From a plasmid, in the sequence record NZ_CP022360.1: a stretch of DNA of 10,479 nt. One strand, written 5' to 3'. Made by a program: the position numbers and the translations under genes. The notes under the pieces were generated by a model that did not search any database, had not been told where the DNA came from, and saw nothing but the letters and a program-made list of their open reading frames with translations. Shown in pieces: positions 35-9,745 of this stretch. Numbering within the stretch: position 1 is the first letter of the stretch; every line of letters starts with the position of its first letter.

Positions 35-133
35 ATGACCATTGTTGATTATATCTTAGTATCATCCCCGTTGCTGTTAGTGGTAGCTTTAGGTGTAATG
101 TATTTTAAAAATCATCATAAAGACTCTAACTAA
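35..133 (+). CDS. Small hydrophobic peptide, 32 aa (MTIVDYILVSSPLLLVVALGVMYFKNHHKDSN), one predicted TM segment; function unknown
   Basis: ATG at 35 is preceded by GGAAGGA at 21-27 with 7-nt spacing. TAA stop at 131-133. An intrinsic terminator follows. Not in the ORF track because it is below the size cutoff. Size and composition resemble the peptide at 1678..1776. Confidence 0.35.
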   Translation: MTIVDYILVSSPLLLVVALGVMYFKNHHKDSN

Positions 134-273: not shown

Positions 274-288
274 TTTTGCATTGCAAAA
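274..288. repeat. Palindrome family copy 1: TTTTGCATTGCAAAA followed by TTATCT. Lies directly after the stop of CDS 289..579.
   Basis: Exact 15-bp palindrome. The 21-bp stretch ttttgcattgcaaaattatct is identical to copy 2. Confidence 0.85.
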
Positions 289-579
289 TTATCTACGCCT
301 TCTAAAAAAAGCACTTGGCAGATAAAACAATGGAAATAACACAGTATAAACAACCGCATACAATGCACTGTGCGGCTTTTTTGAAGCAAAATATTTACAA
401 TAACCCCAATAGCCGATCAGCGTAAAAGTAAACGAAACGGAAGCCGCCACAAGATATTGGCTCGATAGGGTGACATCGGACTCCTGAATCGCAAGCCAGG
501 CAAAACCCAGCATACAAGATGAGATGATCACACACGGCAACGCATGGGCCCAAAACGCATTCAACGATACTTTATCCAT
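289..579 (-). CDS. Small integral membrane protein, 96 aa, three predicted TM helices, C-terminal FFRRRR tail; holin-like architecture; function unknown
   Basis: ATG at 579 on the minus strand with GAGAGG about 8 nt upstream. The ORF-track TTG at 588 is probably not the start. Three hydrophobic stretches of 19-21 aa. Lies 24 nt downstream of CDS 604..906, so operon-like. Confidence 0.6.
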   Translation of the reverse strand: MDKVSLNAFWAHALPCVIISSCMLGFAWLAIQESDVTLSSQYLVAASVSFTFTLIGYWGYCKYFASKKPHSALYAVVYTVLFPLFYLPSAFFRRRR

Positions 580-603
580 TAAAAACAACCTCTCGATTAC
601 AAT

Positions 604-906
604 TTATGCTTCTCTAATCATTGAAAAGCCATGCTTAATCCCACTAAGACACTCTCTTTCAATATGCTTTTCACTACCCGCTAATGAGGCAATAGCTATG
701 CCGATCTCATTAGCTAAATCACATACCTCAATATCCTTCTGTGGAAGATCGCTTAAGGCTGCCATTAGCTTAGTTATGAACATTTCAACATCAACTCGAT
801 TTGATACAGTGGCTTGTTCACGCAAGTAAGCCTCAAGAACGGCAGGATTGGCGAGCGCCGCAGCTTTAACTTCTGCAAATGGAATACCTTTAACCTTGTT
901 ATTCAC
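604..906 (-). CDS. TraJ-like ribbon-helix-helix DNA-binding protein, candidate oriT-recognising relaxosome accessory factor, about 100 aa
   Basis: GTG at 906 is preceded by AAGGTGG with 6-nt spacing; the ORF-track alternative is TTG at 960. The N-terminal segment KVKGIPFAEVKAAALANPAVLEAYL resembles RP4 TraJ KVYCLPDERRAIEEKAAAAGMSLSAYL (E-x-KAAA...L-x-AYL). The gene is transcribed away from the RP4-like nick region at 1037-1061, as traJ is in RP4. Confidence 0.55.
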   Translation of the reverse strand: MNNKVKGIPFAEVKAAALANPAVLEAYLREQATVSNRVDVEMFITKLMAALSDLPQKDIEVCDLANEIGIAIASLAGSEKHIERECLSGIKHGFSMIREA

Positions 907-916
907 TATTATCCAC

Positions 917-931
917 CTTGATTTTGTAACT
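917..931 (-). promoter_or_regulatory. Shared operator-like motif AGTTACAAAATCAAG (reads on the minus strand) between a putative extended -10 (TGTGATAAT, plus coordinates 960-968) and the RBS of CDS 604..906
   Basis: Exact 15-mer is also present at 2394-2408. Related copies at 1321-1345 and 3298-3312. Confidence 0.5.
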
Positions 932-1008
932 TTTTCAATAATTGAGGTTGCTTGATTCAATTATCACAGGGAAGGAATTGAGCGCCGGAATGGAGCGAAT
1001 ATATCCAA

Positions 1009-1062
1009 GTGAATAGGGCAGCCTGATTTATCAAGGTAGGCCTACTTCACACATCCTGCCCA
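1009..1062 (+). other. Origin of transfer, IncP/RP4 (MOBP)-type. Imperfect inverted repeat 1009-1027 / 1034-1052, then nick region ACTTCACACATCCTG|CCC. Predicted nick between 1058 and 1059.
   Basis: GGCCTACTTCACACATCCTGCCC at 1039-1061 matches RP4 oriT GGCCTACTTCACCTATCCTGCCC at 21 of 23 positions. The left arm AAGTGAATAGGGCAGCCTG is an imperfect reverse complement of CAAGGTAGGCCTACTTCAC, as in RP4. A TraJ-like gene is divergent on the left, the same layout as RP4. Confidence 0.6.
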
Positions 1063-1320
1063 GTATTATATTCCGCATTTATCCATGTTTTTTTACGGTT
1101 ATTTAGCGGTTTCAGTGCGTAAAAGCTCAACCATACAAAAAACCGCTATAAACCTGAACAATACGAAGAAAAGCCGTGGTATATCAGTGGTAAATACGCG
1201 CTATATACTGGCTATATACCTTCCATGCCCTACATCCTACACGGGATAATCAATACGTCTCAATATGGTATCCGTCATATAGGTTTTATGGCCTAACTAT
1301 ATTGATACGTATTTACTCAA

Positions 1321-1345
1321 ACTTGATTTTGAAACAAAATCAAGT
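1321..1345. promoter_or_regulatory. Perfect 11-3-11 palindrome ACTTGATTTTG-AAA-CAAAATCAAGT upstream of the RHH gene; putative operator carrying a TTGATT -35-like hexamer
   Basis: Exact inverted repeat. Each half is the CTTGATTTTG core of the shared motif. Confidence 0.55.
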
Positions 1346-1427
1346 TCAGATTGGCTATAAGCACAGCATGACAACTGGATACCAATCGATGTAATGTCGT
1401 TTTACATCTTCTATGTTGAGGTTTGCT

Positions 1428-1670
1428 ATGAGTGTCATGTCAGTACGCTTATCCGATGAAATCGAACAAAAGCGAGTACAGCTTGCTCAGTTAACAGGTA
1501 GAACGAAATCTTGGCTGGCGAAGCAAGCGACTCAGGATTATCTAGCTCTGGAAGCATGGCAAATAGCAGAAATCCATGCCGCGCTATGCGAAGCAGATGC
1601 TGGTGATTTTGTGTCAGAAAACGAAATGAACGCCAAGTTTAAGCGTTGGGGGGGAATGAATACAGATTGA
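1428..1670 (+). CDS. Ribbon-helix-helix (CopG/RelB/ParD-like) antitoxin-type DNA-binding protein, 80 aa; no cognate toxin gene downstream
   Basis: ATG at 1428 with GAGG 7 nt upstream (ORF-track start 1413 also possible). N-terminus MSVRLSDEIEQ...LAQLTGRTKS is a typical RHH beta-strand/helix. The C-terminal tail DAGDFVSENEMNAKFKRWG is typical of RelE/ParE-partner antitoxins. Nothing credible is encoded after the TGA at 1668-1670. Confidence 0.75.
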   Translation: MSVMSVRLSDEIEQKRVQLAQLTGRTKSWLAKQATQDYLALEAWQIAEIHAALCEADAGDFVSENEMNAKFKRWGGMNTD

Positions 1671-1677
1671 GTTAGAA

Positions 1678-1776
1678 CTATTCTTTAAAACCTTTGTATA
1701 AGACCACTCCGGATGCGATGACTAAACCGAGTGTCACGAACATGACGAAGATAGACCATAGTTGTAGCTCACTCAT
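1678..1776 (-). CDS. Small hydrophobic peptide, 32 aa (MSELQLWSIFVMFVTLGLVIASGVVLYKGFKE), one TM segment; convergent with the RHH gene
   Basis: ATG at 1776 on the minus strand with GAGG 6 nt upstream. TAG at 1678-1680. A possible promoter TTAACA-17-CATAAA lies upstream. Below the ORF-track cutoff. Confidence 0.4.
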   Translation of the reverse strand: MSELQLWSIFVMFVTLGLVIASGVVLYKGFKE

Positions 1777-1941
1777 AATATACCTCTGCTCAGTTTATGT
1801 TCTTCCGCGCTGTTAATGTTAACAACCACCCCATGAAGGAGCAATGCAAATTGCCCTTACGCTAAGATAAAAAATGCTTATCTAAAGGGGTAATTTTGCA
1901 ACTCATAAATAACCGTTAATGCTGAAATCATGCTCACGTTT

Positions 1942-1956
1942 TTTTGCATTGCAAAA
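1942..1956. repeat. Palindrome family copy 2: TTTTGCATTGCAAAA + TTATCT
   Basis: Exact. About 128 nt downstream of the stop of CDS 2084..2347 on the minus strand. Confidence 0.85.
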
Positions 1957-2014
1957 TTATCTCTCGAAAATGATGCTAAAAAACGGCAAATACGGCCCAC
2001 CCTTTTGGCCCTTA

Positions 2015-2032
2015 TTTTTTGCATTGCAAAAA
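2015..2032. repeat. Palindrome family copy 3: TTTTTTGCATTGCAAAAA (18 bp), followed by a partial repeat TCCATTGCATTT
   Basis: Exact palindrome. 51 nt downstream of the stop of CDS 2084..2347. Confidence 0.85.
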
Positions 2033-2059
2033 TCCATTGCATTTAACGCGCCTGTTTCA

Positions 2060-2082
2060 CGGTGTTGCACTGTGCAACACCG
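2060..2082. repeat. Perfect 23-bp palindrome CGGTGTTGCAC-T-GTGCAACACCG directly after the stop of CDS 2084..2347; readable as 8-7-8 (CGGTGTTG / CACTGTG / CAACACCG), a layout like a tyrosine-recombinase core site
   Basis: Exact inverted repeat. No U-run follows, so it is not a canonical terminator. Confidence 0.7.
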
Positions 2083-2083
2083 C

Positions 2084-2347
2084 CTAGAACGGCATGGTTT
2101 TAAAGCTAATATTCTGCTTATTGTCATCGAGCGAGCGCAGATACACTGGCTCAGATTCCTGCCCATTTTTATAATGGCTATTCAGGTAAGCGGTCTCGTC
2201 TAAGTGGGTGATTAGCGCCTTGATCACCTCTTGGTACTTCTCAGGAACCCGCATCACCACAGTCTTTTCATACTTGGTTTTACGACCAGCACCAGGACGA
2301 GCGCCGCCATGCTGCCCTTTTACAATGGAAATTTGTTCTTCTTTCAT
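2084..2347 (-). CDS. Small basic protein, 87 aa, with N-terminal GGARPGAGRK Gly/Arg motif; putative DNA-binding accessory protein of the adjacent recombinase. A role as recombination directionality factor is a guess.
   Basis: ATG at 2347 with GGAGGTGA 5-6 nt upstream. Has its own consensus promoter (see 2379..2406). Lies immediately downstream of the integrase gene. Confidence 0.7.
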   Translation of the reverse strand: MKEEQISIVKGQHGGARPGAGRKTKYEKTVVMRVPEKYQEVIKALITHLDETAYLNSHYKNGQESEPVYLRSLDDNKQNISFKTMPF

Positions 2348-2378
2348 AGCTCACCTCCATTTTATTTTCATATTAATT

Positions 2379-2406
2379 ATTATACTTGAATAAGTTACAA
2401 AATCAA
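2379..2406 (-). promoter_or_regulatory. Sigma70 promoter on the minus strand: TTGATT (2406-2401), 16-nt spacer, TATAAT (2384-2379). Drives the 87-aa gene and contains the shared motif AGTTACAAAATCAAG (2394-2408).
   Basis: Consensus -10 and near-consensus -35 read directly from the sequence. Confidence 0.65.
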
Positions 2407-2411
2407 GTTAC

Positions 2412-3281
2412 TTAACGACCTAAATACACAGCAGTAACTTGTAACCGGCTATGCCCTAACTCACCGGTTATCACAGTTCTGGCGTACCTATCAGCGGCTT
2501 GTTGCGCCGCGGGTAATGAACCAACAGAAACACCCGATACCGCCGGACATTCAAAACCGGTCAGTTCCACATAACGGCGATGAGCGTAGCTGTGCCTTAA
2601 CCCATGTGCCCTATCCAATCCAATTTTTATACAGGTATTTTCATAGCGTTTCATTTGCTGCACATAACTGAGTTCTTTCGGAATAAGCGATCTGCCGGCA
2701 GCTAATGCTTTCGCCTCTGCCAATAGTTCATGCTGAGCAGCCGTTAAAATCTGGATCGCGCGATCTCGACCGCCTTTGCACCAGGACGCATCAAGTACCA
2801 AACGATCACCCCGATCCGCTTTCGCCGGCTGGATCTTCATGGCTTCTTCACGCCGTAATCCAAACGCTGCCTGCAGGCGCAAGGACATTTGCACATACTG
2901 ATCGGTTATCAAATTTAGTCGCATATCACTCAATTTTCGGCTCTTATTTTCATTGGTGACATACACTCTACGGCTAATCCCCACCGAGTCATTGGAGCGC
3001 GGTATAAGGCCATTTTTACCGATTTTTTCCGCTAACCACCGTAGATGTGCCATACGATTTTTAATCGTGCCCAGGGCAAGGCCCTCAGCTTGCCAATGAG
3101 TAACTAATGCTTCGATGTGCTTAGGTTTTAAATTATTGAGTTTAAGCCCTTTAAAACCCAAGGCAACGAGCTGTTTATCGACTAATTTTATGGTTTTGAA
3201 TCGTTCTGATTTAGTCGCAAAAGAGCTTGGGTTGTGCTGCCGCAATAGCTTGCTGGCCTCAAAAAAGAAATTGGTCGCCAT
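2412..3281 (-). CDS. Tyrosine-type site-specific recombinase/integrase, 289 aa
   Basis: Catalytic signature is present: LRREE (Arg I), HGLRHSYAHRRY (H-x-x-R box II), LGHSRLQVTAVYLG (His/Tyr nucleophile region). AAGGTG lies 4 nt before the ATG. Confidence 0.9.
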   Translation of the reverse strand: MATNFFFEASKLLRQHNPSSFATKSERFKTIKLVDKQLVALGFKGLKLNNLKPKHIEALVTHWQAEGLALGTIKNRMAHLRWLAEKIGKNGLIPRSNDSVGISRRVYVTNENKSRKLSDMRLNLITDQYVQMSLRLQAAFGLRREEAMKIQPAKADRGDRLVLDASWCKGGRDRAIQILTAAQHELLAEAKALAAGRSLIPKELSYVQQMKRYENTCIKIGLDRAHGLRHSYAHRRYVELTGFECPAVSGVSVGSLPAAQQAADRYARTVITGELGHSRLQVTAVYLGR

Positions 3282-3288
3282 AATGCAC

Positions 3289-3310
3289 CTTGAAAAAGTT
3301 ACACAATCAA
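3289..3310 (-). promoter_or_regulatory. Near-duplicate (20/22) of the 2385-2406 promoter element, immediately upstream of the integrase RBS. On the minus strand it reads TTGATTGTGTAACTTTTTCAAG, but it lacks a good -10.
   Basis: Plus strand cttgaaaaagttacacaatcaa versus cttgaataagttacaaaatcaa. Confidence 0.5.
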
Positions 3311-3333
3311 AAAATAGAATTTAATTTTGAGAT

Positions 3334-3363
3334 AAAAAGCACGCCCATTCGGGCGTGTTTTAA
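3334..3363. terminator. Bidirectional intrinsic terminator: AAAAA GCACGCCC ATTC GGGCGTG TTTT
   Basis: 7-bp GC-rich stem 3340-3346 / 3351-3357. T-run 3358-3361 on the plus strand. On the minus strand the stem is followed by CTTTTT. Confidence 0.55.
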
Positions 3364-3708
3364 GAGGAATATATTTCTCGAGGGCTAACAACACGGCGAC
3401 CTATTTCTAGGCCATTTCGGAATTCAGTTCAGTGTTAATGCTCGTTCTGACTGCCGACACAGAAAGAACCCACCGGCAAACCGGTGATATTGAGCGAGTG
3501 TTGTTACGGGCAATTGCCCAAATGGTGTGGCTCTGTTGAGCGCAAACATCCAAATATAATGACCCATAAGCTCTGTTGAGCTTGGAGATTACTAGGTGAT
3601 CAAAGAGGTTTCGTTATTTGGCATCAATGGATGCGAGGTGAAGAAACTTGACTGTACCTCATGCTAAATTACAGCGCAAGCCACTGCTTCGGCGTCACGC
3701 CTCAAAAA

Positions 3709-3807
3709 GCAAAAAATGACGCTACCCCCGCATGAGGAACACCATTTGGGGGTAGTGTCACTCCCTTAAAATGGAGTGACACTACCCCGCTTGACGTCAT
3801 TTTTTGC
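3709..3807. repeat. Nested inverted-repeat element: outer 13-bp IR GCAAAAAATGACG / CGTCATTTTTTGC enclosing a perfect 16-bp-stem hairpin (GGGGTAGTGTCACTCC-cttaaaat-GGAGTGACACTACCCC) and a competing 8-bp stem (CTACCCCC / GGGGGTAG). Contains TGACGTCA.
   Basis: Coordinates read directly: 3709-3721, 3722-3729, 3748-3755, 3749-3764, 3773-3788, 3795-3807. Confidence 0.7.
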
Positions 3808-3999
3808 TCATTGAAAGAACTAGCCACTTTGCTCTTGGCGATAGACTTCGCTAATCACCTATCGCTCAGAGGCCCTAAAATGCGTTTTAAGCAACATTTT
3901 TAAAAAATGGCATGTTGCTATACGTTTATCTTTTTAGCGGGTTTTACAGCGTTTTAACCATGTTAGCATTGATGATAGAGGTGGATTTACCTCCTTCCT

Positions 4000-4270
4000 G
4001 CTAGACCTGAGCGAAGCGATGCTTTTAGCAAGAAGTACAGCACGTTTGTTGTTAAACGGTCGGAGACAAACGGAACTAATAGCGAGGTTTTTATGCTCGC
4101 CCCTAGCGAAGCTAGGAAATGGCGAGGCATTAATGGGTAAGGGTGGAGCCTTTAGGCGAACTAGGGCGAAGCCCTTGGTCGCGGCGCAGCCGCTGCTCTT
4201 GGGGGCGCCGGAAACGAGCGAAGCGAGGGGAAGGGCCGGCGGGGGCAAAGCCCCCTGGAGGGGTTCTTAC
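4000..4270. other. GC-rich island (non-coding by my reading) with a cluster of tri-loop mini-hairpins: CCTAGC-GAA-GCTAGG (4102-4116), GGGC-GAA-GCCC (4162-4172), GCGGC-GCA-GCCGC (4182-4194), GGGGGC-AAA-GCCCCC (4241-4255). GAGCGAAGCGA is repeated at 4010-4020 and 4216-4226.
   Basis: Contrasts with the AT-rich surroundings. Contains the GCGAAGC motif four times. The ORF-track frames here (3934..4248 minus, 4019..4285 plus) overlap each other and give low-complexity Ala/Arg/Gly-rich translations. Confidence 0.6.
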
Positions 4271-4284
4271 TTCCCGAAATTTTA

Positions 4285-4500
4285 AAGTTTTCCACATGAT
4301 TTTTACTTTGTAAGATCTTTATCTTTCTTGTTTGTATAGATCTTTCTTGTTTGTAGCACCTCTGAACACCTTGATACGCAATGATTTCAGCGGTGATAGG
4401 TGGAGAGATTTACGGTGAAAAGCACTTTATAGGAGGAGAGATTTACGGTGAAAACAGAACTGATAGGTGGAGAAATTTACGGTCATATCCACAAATTAAA
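4285..4500. other. Vegetative replication origin (oriV) of an iteron-type theta replicon: DnaA-box-like TTTTCCACA (4288-4296), AT-rich tract with GATC at 4314-4317 and 4339-4342 and a 16-bp direct repeat ATCTTTCTTGTTTGTA (4321-4336, 4340-4355), iteron array, DnaA-box-like ATATCCACA (4485-4493)
   Basis: Classic layout directly upstream of a Rep_3-type rep gene. Confidence 0.75.
4395..4486 (+). repeat. Three iterons, about 27 bp each, consensus (G/T)ATAGGWGGAGARATTTACGGTGAAAA, at 4395-4421, 4428-4454, 4462-4486, with 33-34 bp periodicity
   Basis: Direct repeats read from the sequence. Confidence 0.8.
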
Positions 4501-4519
4501 GAGAAGTTAATTTACAACT

Positions 4520-4544
4520 ATTCCTCCTATATGTAAGGTGGAAT
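4520..4544. promoter_or_regulatory. Inverted repeat ATTCCTCC-n9-GGTGGAAT containing an iteron half (GGTGGA) between the origin and the repA start; putative Rep autorepression operator
   Basis: 8-bp arms with one mismatch. The spacer TATATGTAA could serve as a -10. Confidence 0.5.
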
Positions 4545-4569
4545 AATCTATCAACAATATCTCCTTTGT

Positions 4570-5262
4570 ATGAATTCAAAACTTGCAGTAACGAAAGCAA
4601 ATAGCCTTTTAGATGCTCGATATAGACTTAATGTACAAGCACAAAAGTTGGTTTTAGCCTGTCTGAGCAAGGTAGATCCTCGACCAGATTCAACCCCGTT
4701 AAAAGAGGTCAGGTTATCAGCCCTAGAATTCTCAGAACTTATGGGGATAGATATAAAAAACGCGCATAGAGAGCTATACAAAGCGGCAGATTTACTTTTT
4801 AAATCAACCATAACGCTCTATGAGAACGGTGAAGAAATAGAACTATATTGGATTCAAGAAAAAGCAAAAAAAATTAAAGGTGATGGTGCAGTTAGGTTGG
4901 TTTGGTCTGATCGCGTATTAAAATACATAACTCAGCTAAAGAGTAATTTTACTACCTACAAATTACGCAACATCGCAAATCTTCAGTCTGCACACTCGAT
5001 CCGTCTTTACGAACTGCTTTCACGTTTTAACGACAAAAACTTTAGAAACATTAGTCTAGATGATTTCAGATACGCATTAGGCGTCGATGATAAATATCCG
5101 CTTTTCAAAGATCTAAATAAATGGGTGATAAAGCCTTCCGTTCAAGAATTAAACCAGCGGAGCGATCTTGTTATCACATACGAAACCATCAAACATGGAA
5201 GGAACGTAACCGCACTAGCTTTCACCCTGAAACCAAACAAACAGTTGAAAATGGATCTCTAG
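4570..5262 (+). CDS. repA: Replication initiator protein, Rep_3 (RepA/RepB iteron-binding) family, 230 aa
   Basis: N-terminal NSLLDARYRLNVQAQKLVLACL is the hallmark Rep_3 motif. Iterons and DnaA boxes lie immediately upstream. No obvious SD. Confidence 0.9.
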   Translation: MNSKLAVTKANSLLDARYRLNVQAQKLVLACLSKVDPRPDSTPLKEVRLSALEFSELMGIDIKNAHRELYKAADLLFKSTITLYENGEEIELYWIQEKAKKIKGDGAVRLVWSDRVLKYITQLKSNFTTYKLRNIANLQSAHSIRLYELLSRFNDKNFRNISLDDFRYALGVDDKYPLFKDLNKWVIKPSVQELNQRSDLVITYETIKHGRNVTALAFTLKPNKQLKMDL

Positions 5263-5356
5263 AAACACCTAGGAAAGTTGTAGCATTCACACACATTAGA
5301 CATAATGAAACACATGCAACACCACCGGTCCATTGACCATAAATTGGATGCAACAC

Positions 5357-5803
5357 ATGGCAAAGTTAAATCTAAGTCAGGCTGCTAAAGTAGTAGGTAA
5401 GAACAGGGTTACACTTTGGCGACACATCAACGCTGGCAAGCTTTCAGCAGAAAGAGACCGTGACGGAAATCCATTAGTTGATACATCAGAACTACTTCGT
5501 GTTTATGGAGTGCTGAAACAAGATGCAACACATGAATCAGAAAAAAAGCAACACAATGAAACACCATCATATGAAGAGCTTTTGCAGCTAGTAAAAGAAA
5601 TGCGGAAAGAGCAATCTGAAATGAAATCGCTCATTCTCGACTTAAGCAATAGGCTTGAATACAAACCAGAAAACCCAACATTTCAACATGATTATGTAAC
5701 GAAATCAAAGCCTGAATCAGACCCTGAGTGGCCAAAAGAAGTTAAAACGCTAGCAGATATAATGTTAAGAAATGAAATTAAGGCTAAATACCTCAAAGAC
5801 TAG
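5357..5803 (+). CDS. Helix-turn-helix DNA-binding protein, about 148 aa, immediately downstream of repA (RepB-like accessory gene, as seen in Rep_3 small plasmids); acidic/charged C-terminal half
   Basis: MAKLNLSQAAKVVGKNRVTLWRHINAGKLSA has an HTH signature. Alternative in-frame starts at 5348 (ATG) and 5333 (TTG) cannot be excluded. Confidence 0.7.
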   Translation: MAKLNLSQAAKVVGKNRVTLWRHINAGKLSAERDRDGNPLVDTSELLRVYGVLKQDATHESEKKQHNETPSYEELLQLVKEMRKEQSEMKSLILDLSNRLEYKPENPTFQHDYVTKSKPESDPEWPKEVKTLADIMLRNEIKAKYLKD

Positions 5804-5944
5804 CATTAAACGCTCCCCTAGCCTCAATAGCTACCTTCACGTTGGTGTGCTTCTTGTTGGCTATAGCGCATACTTTGGATAGTAAGGTGCTCATATCGTC
5901 CCTCTTAAAAACAATCCCCATTGATAAACGATAGAGTGTGATAA

Positions 5945-5959
5945 TTTTGCAATGCAAAA
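5945..5959. repeat. Palindrome family copy 4, inverted orientation (TTTTGCAATGCAAAA); its reverse complement carries the same TTATC flank as copies 1 and 2. Lies 36 nt beyond the toxin stop.
   Basis: Central base A versus T, plus the flank, define orientation. Confidence 0.85.
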
Positions 5960-5994
5960 ATGTATTACAATTGAAATACACAAATAAGTGAAGA

Positions 5995-6351
5995 TTACTT
6001 ATAAACCAAGCAATGATTAATCAACTGATTCTGTATACTTTGCCGTTGGCTCAAAAAAAGTAGCACTGTAATAAGGGCTTCACCATTAACGTAGCTAACC
6101 TCGTACAGTATTCTAAAGTCCTCTTTAATCGCATGCCTTACCTGAGTAACGCCAAGCTCAACTAACTCTTGGCATAACGCATGGCTCAAAGGATTTTGCG
6201 TCACGGATGATTCAAAGGCATCAATAACAGCCTCAATTCTCTCGATAATCGAGATCTCGTCATTCCATTGGGAGTAGTGAGATATGGCGCTATCTACGGT
6301 GTCTTCAAATGTCTTGGTATATTCCAGTTTCACCACAGACATACTACTCAT
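5995..6351 (-). CDS. RelE/ParE-superfamily toxin (partner of the Phd/YefM antitoxin), 115-118 aa
   Basis: N-terminal VKLEYTKTFEDTVD and C-terminal DFRILYEV...ITVLLFLSQRQ fit the RelE/ParE pattern. The start overlaps or abuts the antitoxin stop: ATG at 6351 or, better supported by the SD, ATG at 6342. Confidence 0.7.
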   Translation of the reverse strand: MSSMSVVKLEYTKTFEDTVDSAISHYSQWNDEISIIERIEAVIDAFESSVTQNPLSHALCQELVELGVTQVRHAIKEDFRILYEVSYVNGEALITVLLFLSQRQSIQNQLINHCLVYK

Positions 6352-6601
6352 CCTTTAAAGCGAGTTTACGATTAGCCAAACGCTCCTTGAATACACTTGA
6401 TGAGATCGTGCGACCATTTTGTTGATCACTTTTCGCAAAACTGACCAACTTCAGTAAAGCAATCGCCTCATCGCGTCGATTTCTATCAGCAACCGACTCA
6501 ATAACGTAAGCAGGGACACCATTTTGAGTAATAATCATCGGCTCATCGAGGGGCAAACTCGCTGCATTTTTCTTCAAAAAACTGATTGTTTCTATGTTCA
6601 T
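6344..6601 (-). CDS. Phd/YefM-family antitoxin, 85 aa
   Basis: MNIETISFLKKNAASLPLDEPMIITQNGVPAYVIESVADRNRRDEAIALLKL is a typical Phd/YefM N-domain. The gene is upstream of, and overlapping, the toxin gene. Confidence 0.85.
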   Translation of the reverse strand: MNIETISFLKKNAASLPLDEPMIITQNGVPAYVIESVADRNRRDEAIALLKLVSFAKSDQQNGRTISSSVFKERLANRKLALKDE

Positions 6602-6733
6602 AAGTTTGTGCCTGGTTGATTGATTAGAAATAAGGGAACCCCATTCACTATGGCAATAATCATATCATGCGACACACTAAAGACCAAAAAAAGACCAAAT
6701 TTAGCCTTTCTTTAATGAGGTAATGTTAATGCA

Positions 6734-6752
6734 TTTTTTGCATTGCAAAAAA
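6734..6752. repeat. Palindrome family copy 5: TTTTTTGCATTGCAAAAAA (19 bp), 11 nt after the stop of the small recombinase gene. Its left flank TGTTAATGCAT resembles the left flank of the reverse-complemented copy 4 (TGTAATACAT).
   Basis: Exact palindrome. Confidence 0.85.
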
Positions 6753-7399: not shown

Positions 7400-7430
7400 T
7401 TGAATCAGTTCTCTAGAGATTTGATTCATC
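7400..7430. repeat. Near-palindrome TGAATCA-gt-TCTCTAGAGA-tt-TGATTCA immediately upstream of the small recombinase gene
   Basis: 7-bp arms plus a 10-bp central palindrome. Confidence 0.7.
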
Positions 7431-7493: not shown

Positions 7494-7524
7494 GCGTGAA
7501 TCAGTCTGGTGTAGAGTGATTCAC
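7494..7524. repeat. Inverted repeat CGTGAATCAGTC-tggtgta-GAGTGATTCACG (12-7-12 with one mismatch; 9 bp perfect), a layout like a tyrosine-recombinase core site
   Basis: Read directly. A GC-rich hairpin-prone segment (7438-7490) separates it from the 7400-7430 repeat. Confidence 0.7.
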
Positions 7525-9232: not shown

Positions 9233-9710
9233 TTAATAAACTCCGAAACTTAATTTGCTTGCTAAGATTTATTAATCTGCATACGTGTCTAACTTATTAG
9301 ATAGAAAATCGCGCACTTTTTAAGACAAACGTATCAGTTTTTCGTCAAATACGCTATGCGCATCCGGCGTTTTTCAACGCCTATTATCTAACCTACATAA
9401 AATTTAAATAATTAAATTTTAATTGTTTTATCTTTATAGCCTTGGGATAACGCATACGTATATTGACTAAAATGCATTCGAAAATAAGAAATTTTGAATA
9501 TAACCGTATAACGATTATGTTTTGACACTAGTAGTGAATAACGCCGAGCAGAAAAATTGTAGGCCAATGAGATAACCAGTGTCTGGTTAAGCGCTCGGCA
9601 CTCAGGCAGTTAGGGAAAAGCGCATTAACCCGAAGCCAGCGTAAAATGACGGCATTTGGGTCTGATTCACTAAAATGTGGGCCTAATTAGCAATGGCAAA
9701 TAGCTCTGTG

Positions 9711-9745
9711 TTGATTACTATAAATCAAAAGTGTACAATGTACAC
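9711..9745 (+). promoter_or_regulatory. Sigma70 promoter TTGATT (9711-9716), 17-nt spacer, TACAAT (9734-9739) for the toxin-antitoxin operon. Two operator-like palindromes: TTGATTactataAATCAA (9711-9728) over the -35 and GTGTACA-A-TGTACAC (9731-9745) over the -10.
   Basis: Read directly from the sequence. Confidence 0.7.

Follow-up and report, generated by a model that had tools for sequence, protein, structure and literature searches.

The 10,479-nucleotide sequence analyzed here (NZ_CP022360.1; "the window" denotes this whole stretch) is a complete circular 10.48-kb Shewanella plasmid of the Rep_3/OrfX type, and its intergenic regions contain five exact copies of the palindrome TTTTGCA(T/A)TGCAAAA. 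This palindrome is a real, conserved, lineage-restricted dyad element that recurs across genera. It is read here, tentatively, as a candidate binding site of a dimeric protein, serving as a boundary or architectural element, while the recent module exchange that can be demonstrated in the lineage occurs, as judged from sequence comparisons, at a separate family of 27-bp sites and not at the palindromes. All of the closest relatives of the window were Shewanella plasmids; the Logan contig L245 (10,509 bp) was 100% identical to the window once rotated, and in two GenBank plasmids the end of the window was joined to its start, so the molecule is circular. Related sequences are cited by their L numbers where they have to be told apart.

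Copies of the palindrome and their conservation

The palindrome was searched for as exact matches to TTTTGCANTGCAAAA (the 15-mer is also written TTTGCAWTGCAAA) and then with up to two mismatches, with 200 shuffled sequences as a control. Exactly five exact copies were found, all of them intergenic, and no further site was present in the window at up to two mismatches; the shuffles contained 0.26 copies on average, and none of the 200 reached five. In each copy, arms of 7 bp enclose one free base, A or T, and the A/T runs are 4-7 nt long. Copy 1 (274-288, TTTTGCATTGCAAAA) lies within a perfect 19-bp palindrome at 272-290 and abuts the stop codon (289-291) of a gene for a membrane protein of 96/99 amino acids (aa), between convergent units. 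Copy 2 (1942-1956, with the 21-nt extension TTTTGCATTGCAAAATTATCT) is located 127 nt past the stop codon of the gene for an 87-aa ribbon-helix-helix (RHH) protein and 165 nt upstream of an open reading frame (ORF) for a 32-aa hydrophobic peptide (1678-1776, minus strand), and copy 3 (2017-2031; perfect palindrome of 17 bp at 2016-2032) is located 52 nt past the same stop codon of the 87-aa gene, 28 nt from a strong GC-rich hairpin at 2060-2082. Copy 4 (5945-5959), an inverted copy with a central A and a GATAA extension on its left, lies 35 nt past the parE stop codon and directly adjoins the conserved left end (ATGTATTACA) of the phd/parE toxin-antitoxin (TA) module. Copy 5 (6736-6750; perfect palindrome of 19 bp at 6734-6752) follows the stop codon of a 210-aa tyrosine recombinase gene by 12 nt and precedes the phd start by 135 nt. 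Thus, the distances past minus-strand stop codons for copies 1-5 were 0, 127, 52, 35 and 12 nt, respectively.

Parts of the flanks are shared between subsets of the copies. Copies 1 and 2 had the 21 nt of TTTTGCATTGCAAAATTATCT in common, and the reverse complement of copy 4 shared 20-21 nt with both; the arms at 1941-1961 (copy 2) and 5940-5960 (copy 4), 21 nt each, were 100% complementary, and copies 1 and 4 had 31 nt in common at 90%. A degenerate relative, GCAATGCAAATTGC, was found at 1841-1854, a degenerate inverted copy of the 20-mer, GGTAATTTTGCAACTC, at 1886-1909 (79% complementary to 1941-1964), and a partial relative, CCATTGCATTT, at 2035-2045, directly to the right of copy 3; the region 1841-2082 is the densest in TTGCA/TGCAA on the plasmid (11 in 200 bp). 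Copies 2 and 3, together with the second 32-aa ORF, belong to a segment of ~400 bp that is missing from pSXM33 and pSBP2_mcr4, and the 150-bp segment with copy 4 had no match in PLSDB. It should be noted that a first-pass annotation of this sequence had already described five non-random intergenic copies past minus-strand stop codons, the extended 20-21 bp common to copies 1, 2 and 4, the three degenerate relatives and the resemblance of the left flanks of copies 4 and 5 (TGTAATACAT and TGTTAATGCAT), and all of this agrees with the counts, alignments and distances given above. Its five sites and the 19-bp extent of copy 5 are also correct; its third perfect palindrome, given as 2015-2032, is corrected to 2016-2032, and copy 1 is found to extend to 19 bp as well.

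The palindrome was kept in the close relatives of the window, where 118 of the 120 palindrome columns were identical, compared with 52-75% in the diverged flanks. Five substituted copies were seen in the Shewanella lineage (L001 at 2187 and 6847, L143 at 2156, and L262 and L264 at 5185), and the change affected position 1 or 15 only. Copy 5 was retained beside the 210-aa recombinase gene in L001, L002, L003 and L005 and was absent in L004 and L242. Neither pSXM33 (L004), despite both recombinases, the 87-aa protein and a near-identical N-domain of the helix-turn-helix (HTH) protein, nor L006, despite the RHH/AT-hook protein and the 289-aa recombinase, had any palindrome. Other Shewanella plasmid DNA (~251 kb) contained only one copy: pS19503 (49 kb), the 20.6 kb analyzed of pSBP2_mcr4 and positions 1-50 kb of pSx1 had none, and the single copy was on pNUITM-VS1_1, covered over its full 131 kb, a conjugative plasmid on which it sits between convergent genes (~8e-4 expected by chance, as estimated from base composition). 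The bare 15-mer gave unrelated single matches in a genome collection, with none from Shewanella among the 120 matches listed. Both results speak against an abundant host repeat, and the first-pass annotation holds on this point as far as plasmid DNA is concerned.

Outside Shewanella, the core was present in three small Azotobacter chroococcum plasmids (55-59% GC) and in one Pseudomonas fragi plasmid, in each case within unrelated flanks. On the Azotobacter plasmids, two copies, 108 nt apart, precede by 121 and 244 nt a plasmid-borne small RNA gene of the RsmZ/PrrB family (minus strand; L127 1282-1425, L243 6437-6579, L244 3668-3811; 61-66 bits against a gathering score of 44), which is itself preceded by a GacA-box-like TGTAGGCGATGGCTTACA. 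The P. fragi plasmid (L128) also contained two strong matches to PAGEV RNA (652-889 and 5405-5642, 113 bits) and two unannotated copies of an OrfX-like HTH gene. A metagenome scan with the 20-mer returned five relatives and unrelated matches; in one match, on a GC-rich contig, the motif reads to us like a Bacteroidota-type -7 promoter box. Pairs of TTTTGCANTGCAAAA ~132 nt apart recurred in viral contigs of ~105-170 kb (L152-L240; for example, L153 at 11275 and 11408); they resemble what we take to be a conserved non-coding element of alphabaculoviruses and were treated as a coincidence unrelated to the plasmid.

The palindrome as a candidate protein-binding site

The copies may constitute a family of recognition elements with the invariant core TTTGCA-W-TGCAAA and T and A runs of variable length on either side. 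A dimeric protein, we infer, would bind them sequence-specifically with one subunit per 6-7-bp half-site, and the flanking A/T tracts would add minor-groove or bending contacts. Since the sites are intergenic and placed at the outer edges of transcription units, outside promoters, they would act as boundary, silencing or architectural elements, in the manner of the dispersed KorB operators of IncP-1 plasmids, rather than as classical promoter operators, and two other operator-like repeat families of the plasmid, which do lie in promoters, show that the palindrome family is used differently. The binding protein need not be encoded by the plasmid. This reading, although held tentatively, is the one favored here, and it is consistent with the presence of the same core in unrelated flanks in the Azotobacter plasmids of 55-59% GC and in the P. 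fragi plasmid.

A site for a shared regulator had been one option of the first-pass annotation; the option survives, with the qualification that the occurrence of the motif follows that of no DNA-binding protein encoded by the plasmid. The OrfX-like HTH protein was an attractive candidate, being the only protein family common to every palindrome-bearing plasmid examined whole, with a rare Azotobacter/P. fragi subfamily (~17 PLSDB records). It was rejected as the binder: four of four plasmids with this subfamily lacked the motif, as did pSXM33 with its near-identical N-domain, and the broader family is common (2,095 records). The 87-aa RHH protein carries an AT-hook-like GGARPGAGRK motif, and such an arm would suit a GC core between A/T tracts; this candidate was also rejected, since L004 and L006 encode it without having a palindrome and the Azotobacter and P. 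fragi plasmids do not encode it. In form, the element agrees with a ParB/KorB site, for which several copies of a perfect palindrome only 13-16 bp long are expected. The cognate gene was not found, as the proteins of the ten largest ORFs of the window had no ParB domain, and hitch-hiking on the ParB/KorB protein of a large plasmid was rejected because neither pSx1 (positions 1-50 kb, including parAB; no copy) nor pNUITM-VS1_1 (one copy) carried motif arrays. None of the sigma-70 promoters predicted in the window overlapped a copy, and the GATAAT present beside three copies was, on reading the sequence, not accompanied by a -35 element, so a promoter was rejected; an operator for a plasmid regulator was rejected likewise, given that the HTH, RHH and AT-hook proteins did not co-vary with the motif.

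Several points weigh against a binding site. No binder was found; L004 and L006 encode candidate proteins yet carry no copy, and the motif is missing from four of four plasmids whose HTH proteins are most closely related to those of Azotobacter and P. fragi. ParB/KorB was missing from the window, and large plasmids of the co-resident type had no motif arrays, the parAB region included. Plasmids that bear the modules without the copies indicate that the sites are dispensable for every module they accompany, and the 8-bp centre-to-centre spacing of the half-sites is short for a typical HTH dimer. Finally, L003 (8830-8886) and L005 (8833-8889) contain a perfect 45-bp palindrome centred on the 15-mer, in which the one arm position that differs between the two is matched by a complementary change in the other arm, and this could point to a role based on a hairpin.

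Module exchange and other readings of the palindrome

Plasmids with backbones 99-100% identical to that of the window differed from it only between 7524/7525 and 9660, where they had an acyltransferase pair, an AbiU2 pair or a lone 127-aa gene in place of the three-gene cargo. These were by far the commonest breakpoints (17 loci at 7524/7525 and 8 loci at 9660), and both exchange points have 27-bp sites of the TGAATCAG type with a classic 10-7-10 layout, namely, inverted arms TGAAYCAGNC and a 7-bp spacer. The first site, TGAATCAGTC-TGGTGTA-GAGTGATTCA, is located at 7497-7523 beside the 210-aa recombinase gene; of the second (9643-9669), which in relatives reads TGAACCAGAC-TAGGCAA-GTCTGATTCA, the window keeps the right arm only (9660-9669), and a probable third lies at ~7401-7428. 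Further sites were found in L002 (3374-3400, 4239-4265, 17705-17731 and 19094-19120), L004 (2813-2839 and 3190-3216) and L242 (14692-14718 and 15922-15948). Pairs of such sites flanked single-gene cassettes in pS19503, pSXM33, pNUITM-VS1_2 and L143 and a HigBA pair in L002. Their 10-bp arms were conserved, unlike the flanks of the palindrome. A literature search found no paper with the 27-bp site sequences, and the sites look like a previously undescribed cassette-exchange system. The upstream element was also present in pSx1 and two other plasmids, where it adjoined a small serine recombinase gene instead, so the 210-aa recombinase is only a candidate for the enzyme acting at the 27-bp sites. 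As a correction to the first-pass annotation, gene capture in this lineage appears to proceed via a family of 27-bp sites beside the gene of a minimal 210-aa tyrosine recombinase.

That annotation had put recombination sites bounding modules first among the candidate roles of the palindromes, in particular for copies 4 and 5 around an invertible or mobile TA cassette. Crossover at the palindromes is an unlikely explanation of their occurrence, whether effected by a site-specific recombinase of the host or plasmid (a 10-7-10 layout with an invariant GCATTGC overlap) or by short-homology or copy-choice switching between identical palindromes; either variant, if true, would mean a pdif-module-like shuffling system in Shewanella Rep_3/OrfX plasmids. 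When the 41 breakpoint clusters from the comparison with 34 related loci were scored for a position within 5 nt of a palindrome, against a null of random intergenic placement, two were at a palindrome, an enrichment that was not significant (2/41, P = 0.21). These two correspond to copies 4 and 5, and there homology started at the exact edges of the copies (5956-5960 in L002, L003 and L005; 6736-6737 in L001, L003 and L005). Copies 1-3 were off the breakpoints, the nearest being 216-256 and 2060/2073. Copy 4 abuts a sharply defined end of the TA module (5960-6707): its left end, (A/T)TGTATTACA, was identical and sharp in four unrelated contexts, the window included, and this comparison implies that phd/parE moves as a discrete unit. 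However, the end was unchanged in L002, L003 and L005, where no palindrome adjoins it. An identical Phd antitoxin occurred in ten contexts from 20 contigs, always in the same orientation, and ~30 near-identical contigs showed no inversion or deletion between copies, so an invertible cassette is not supported.

The composition of the sites and the distribution of recombinases bear on the same question. Left- and right-flank types appear to be re-assorted around a constant core, and the end of a 535-bp Azotobacter module, found in both a TrfA and a RepB replicon, lies 3-18 nt past the second palindrome, both of which would suit crossover. So would the general arrangement of the plasmid, in which a Rep_3/OrfX backbone with TA and other modules separated by dyad sites resembles the Acinetobacter dif-module plasmids (PMC13141974). 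On the other hand, the putative recombinase arms outside the 15-mer were symmetric at 6-8 of 10 positions and differed between copies, so they do not form a tyrosine-recombinase core site, which has two arms of 9-13 bp and an overlap of 6-8 bp, and only 4 nt of each putative arm were conserved, too little for recognition by a recombinase. L004 encodes both recombinases and L006 and L242 one each, and none of the three has a palindrome; conversely, the palindrome-bearing Azotobacter and P. fragi plasmids (L127, L128, L243 and L244) have no annotated tyrosine or resolvase-type serine recombinase gene. A dif-core pattern with up to three mismatches gave 2 matches in the window against 2.8 expected, neither overlapping a palindrome, and a Xer (dif/pdif) site was therefore rejected. 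The dif consensus, as we take it to read, also fitted poorly when aligned by eye to each copy with its flanks. Together with the demonstrable exchange at the separate, canonical 27-bp family, these results leave the recombination-boundary part of the first-pass annotation without support, although its remaining parts (a non-random repeat, unlikely to be a canonical terminator and, as judged from plasmid DNA, not a generic host repeat) are retained. The few old mosaic junctions at the copies are best explained as a by-product of replicons having short identical palindromes in common.

A related and rather improbable suggestion is that the palindromes are attachment sites of a second, slower system of module assembly beside the 27-bp cassette sites. 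Modules such as phd/parE, in circular form and with one palindrome each, would insert themselves at a palindrome already resident, and joining would be performed by a host factor shared by Alteromonadales and Pseudomonadales or by hairpin-mediated strand switching. If true, this would be a Xer-independent counterpart of the Acinetobacter dif modules and would explain both the two copies flanking the TA module and the copy beside one end of the shared Azotobacter segment.

It is also quite unlikely that the copies are functionless, that is, a repeat spread by duplication, gene conversion or recombination among co-resident small plasmids, or part of a host-wide family similar to repetitive extragenic palindromic (REP) sequences. 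Every module that bears a copy also exists without it (L004, L006 and L242), and the 20-31 nt common to subsets of the copies suggest copying between sites. Against this stand the conservation of the core where flanks have diverged and the persistence of the exact core in plasmids of Alteromonadales and Pseudomonadales with unrelated flanks and very different GC contents.

An action through nucleic-acid structure is very unlikely. The copies would then be weak or bidirectional transcription stops, stabilizers of RNA 3' ends, or single-stranded DNA hairpins formed during mobilization from the plasmid's IncP-type oriT. The position of all five copies shortly past minus-strand stop codons would suit this, as would the lack of a predicted canonical terminator after the parE and recombinase units and the oriT-like element described below; in the first Azotobacter copy, the T-run can be read, on the minus strand, as the U-tract of a neighboring GC hairpin. 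The 45-bp palindrome of L003 and L005 folds at -23.8 kcal/mol (z = -5.2), and its compensatory change is what a structural role would require; however, template-switch correction can maintain perfect long palindromes without selection. In the window, the folding energies of the RNA hairpins at the copies lay between only -3.1 and -9.1 kcal/mol and their z-scores between +0.6 and -2.7, for the most part not better than those of shuffled sequences, whereas real terminator hairpins of this plasmid attain -19 kcal/mol. Relative to its transcript, copy 4 has the inverted orientation, and other instances of the motif lie in divergent intergenic regions upstream of genes. An intrinsic terminator in particular was rejected, there being no GC-rich stem, a U-run that precedes the stem instead of following it, weak folding and no copy called in a terminator scan of the window; the first-pass annotation had also considered it unlikely. 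No Rfam family matched at the copies, and a literature search gave no paper with the motif in a bacterial regulatory context, the matches being primers or the 3' end of RK2 trfA.

Other elements of the plasmid and comparison with known systems

The backbone of the window comprises iterons, a Rep_3 initiator and, after the latter, a 148-aa HTH protein that is a relative of NCBIfam NF038291 ("plasmid replication DNA-binding protein", OrfX/ORF2 type). The other genes encode a 289-aa Integrase_1-type recombinase followed by the 87-aa RHH protein, an orphan RelB-like RHH protein, the phd/parE and RelE/NadS pairs, the 210-aa tyrosine recombinase, which has a catalytic domain only, and the three-gene cargo. 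Two 32-aa hydrophobic ORFs (35-133, plus strand, and 1678-1776, minus strand) have good ribosome-binding sites and are annotated as genes in related contigs; they possibly encode type I toxin-like peptides. A second repeat family, CTTGATTTTGTAAC...TTCAAG, occurs at 917-938, 1320-1345 (a near-perfect 26-bp palindrome), 2384-2409 and 3290-3310, directly upstream of the genes for the 100-aa, RHH, 87-aa and 289-aa recombinase proteins, and one of its members overlaps the promoter with the best prediction (TTGATT-16-TATAAT, 2406-2379). The family probably serves these genes as a common operator, the regulator perhaps being the orphan RelB-like RHH protein. A perfect 15-bp palindrome with a 7-1-7 layout, GTGTACAATGTACAC (9731-9745), lies 29 nt upstream of the start of the RelE/NadS operon and is probably the NadS operator. 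Upstream of the 100-aa gene, a near-threshold match to the Rfam family traJ-II was found on the minus strand (960-1061; 38.3 bits, gathering score 40). Within this match, CTTCACACATCCTGCCC resembles what we take to be the nick region of the IncP/RP4 oriT, and the plasmid is probably mobilizable though it encodes no relaxase. Stronger traJ-II matches were obtained for pAcX50b and the P. fragi plasmid.

Among known systems, the Acinetobacter pdif/dif modules are similar in that a small plasmid with Rep_3 and an OrfX-like HTH gene has several short intergenic dyad sites between modules, with a TA module between two copies in opposite orientation. Unlike the pdif sites of XerC/XerD, the palindromes have no 11-6-11 architecture, no similarity to dif, no significant enrichment at breakpoints and no natural rearrangements between copies, and the exchange points of the lineage are the 27-bp sites. 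REP sequences and bacterial interspersed mosaic elements are likewise repeated palindromes found after genes in both orientations, whereas the present element is much shorter, AT-rich, weakly folding and rare outside one plasmid lineage, and no gene resembling a REP-associated tyrosine transposase (RAYT) accompanies it. The resemblance to intrinsic terminators is confined to the position just past stop codons; the absence of a GC-rich stem, the U-run on the wrong side and the mostly shuffle-like energies set the palindromes apart.

In form, the element is similar to ParB-type sites, as far as the sequences that we take to be the KorB operator OB of IncP-1 (TTTAGCSGCTAAA) and parS2 of Vibrio chromosome II (NTTTACANTGTAAAN) allow: these, too, are perfect palindromes of 13-15 bp with TTT, three bases, a free centre, three bases and AAA, and the palindrome core differs from the presumed parS2 at one position per half-site. 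The KorB operators of IncP-1 are also dispersed intergenic copies at variable distances from promoters, whereas here the plasmid has no ParB/KorB gene, and no motif cluster was present on the parAB region of pSx1 or on pNUITM-VS1_1. Thus, the palindrome resembles KorB operators and parS in its form and the Acinetobacter dif modules in its setting, while having the defining properties of neither. Accessory genes are carried to a large extent by small Rep_3/OrfX plasmids, in which the delimitation and exchange of modules are understood only for Acinetobacter (Xer/pdif); a dyad element conserved across genera offers a handle for finding a new plasmid-host or plasmid-plasmid interaction in them.

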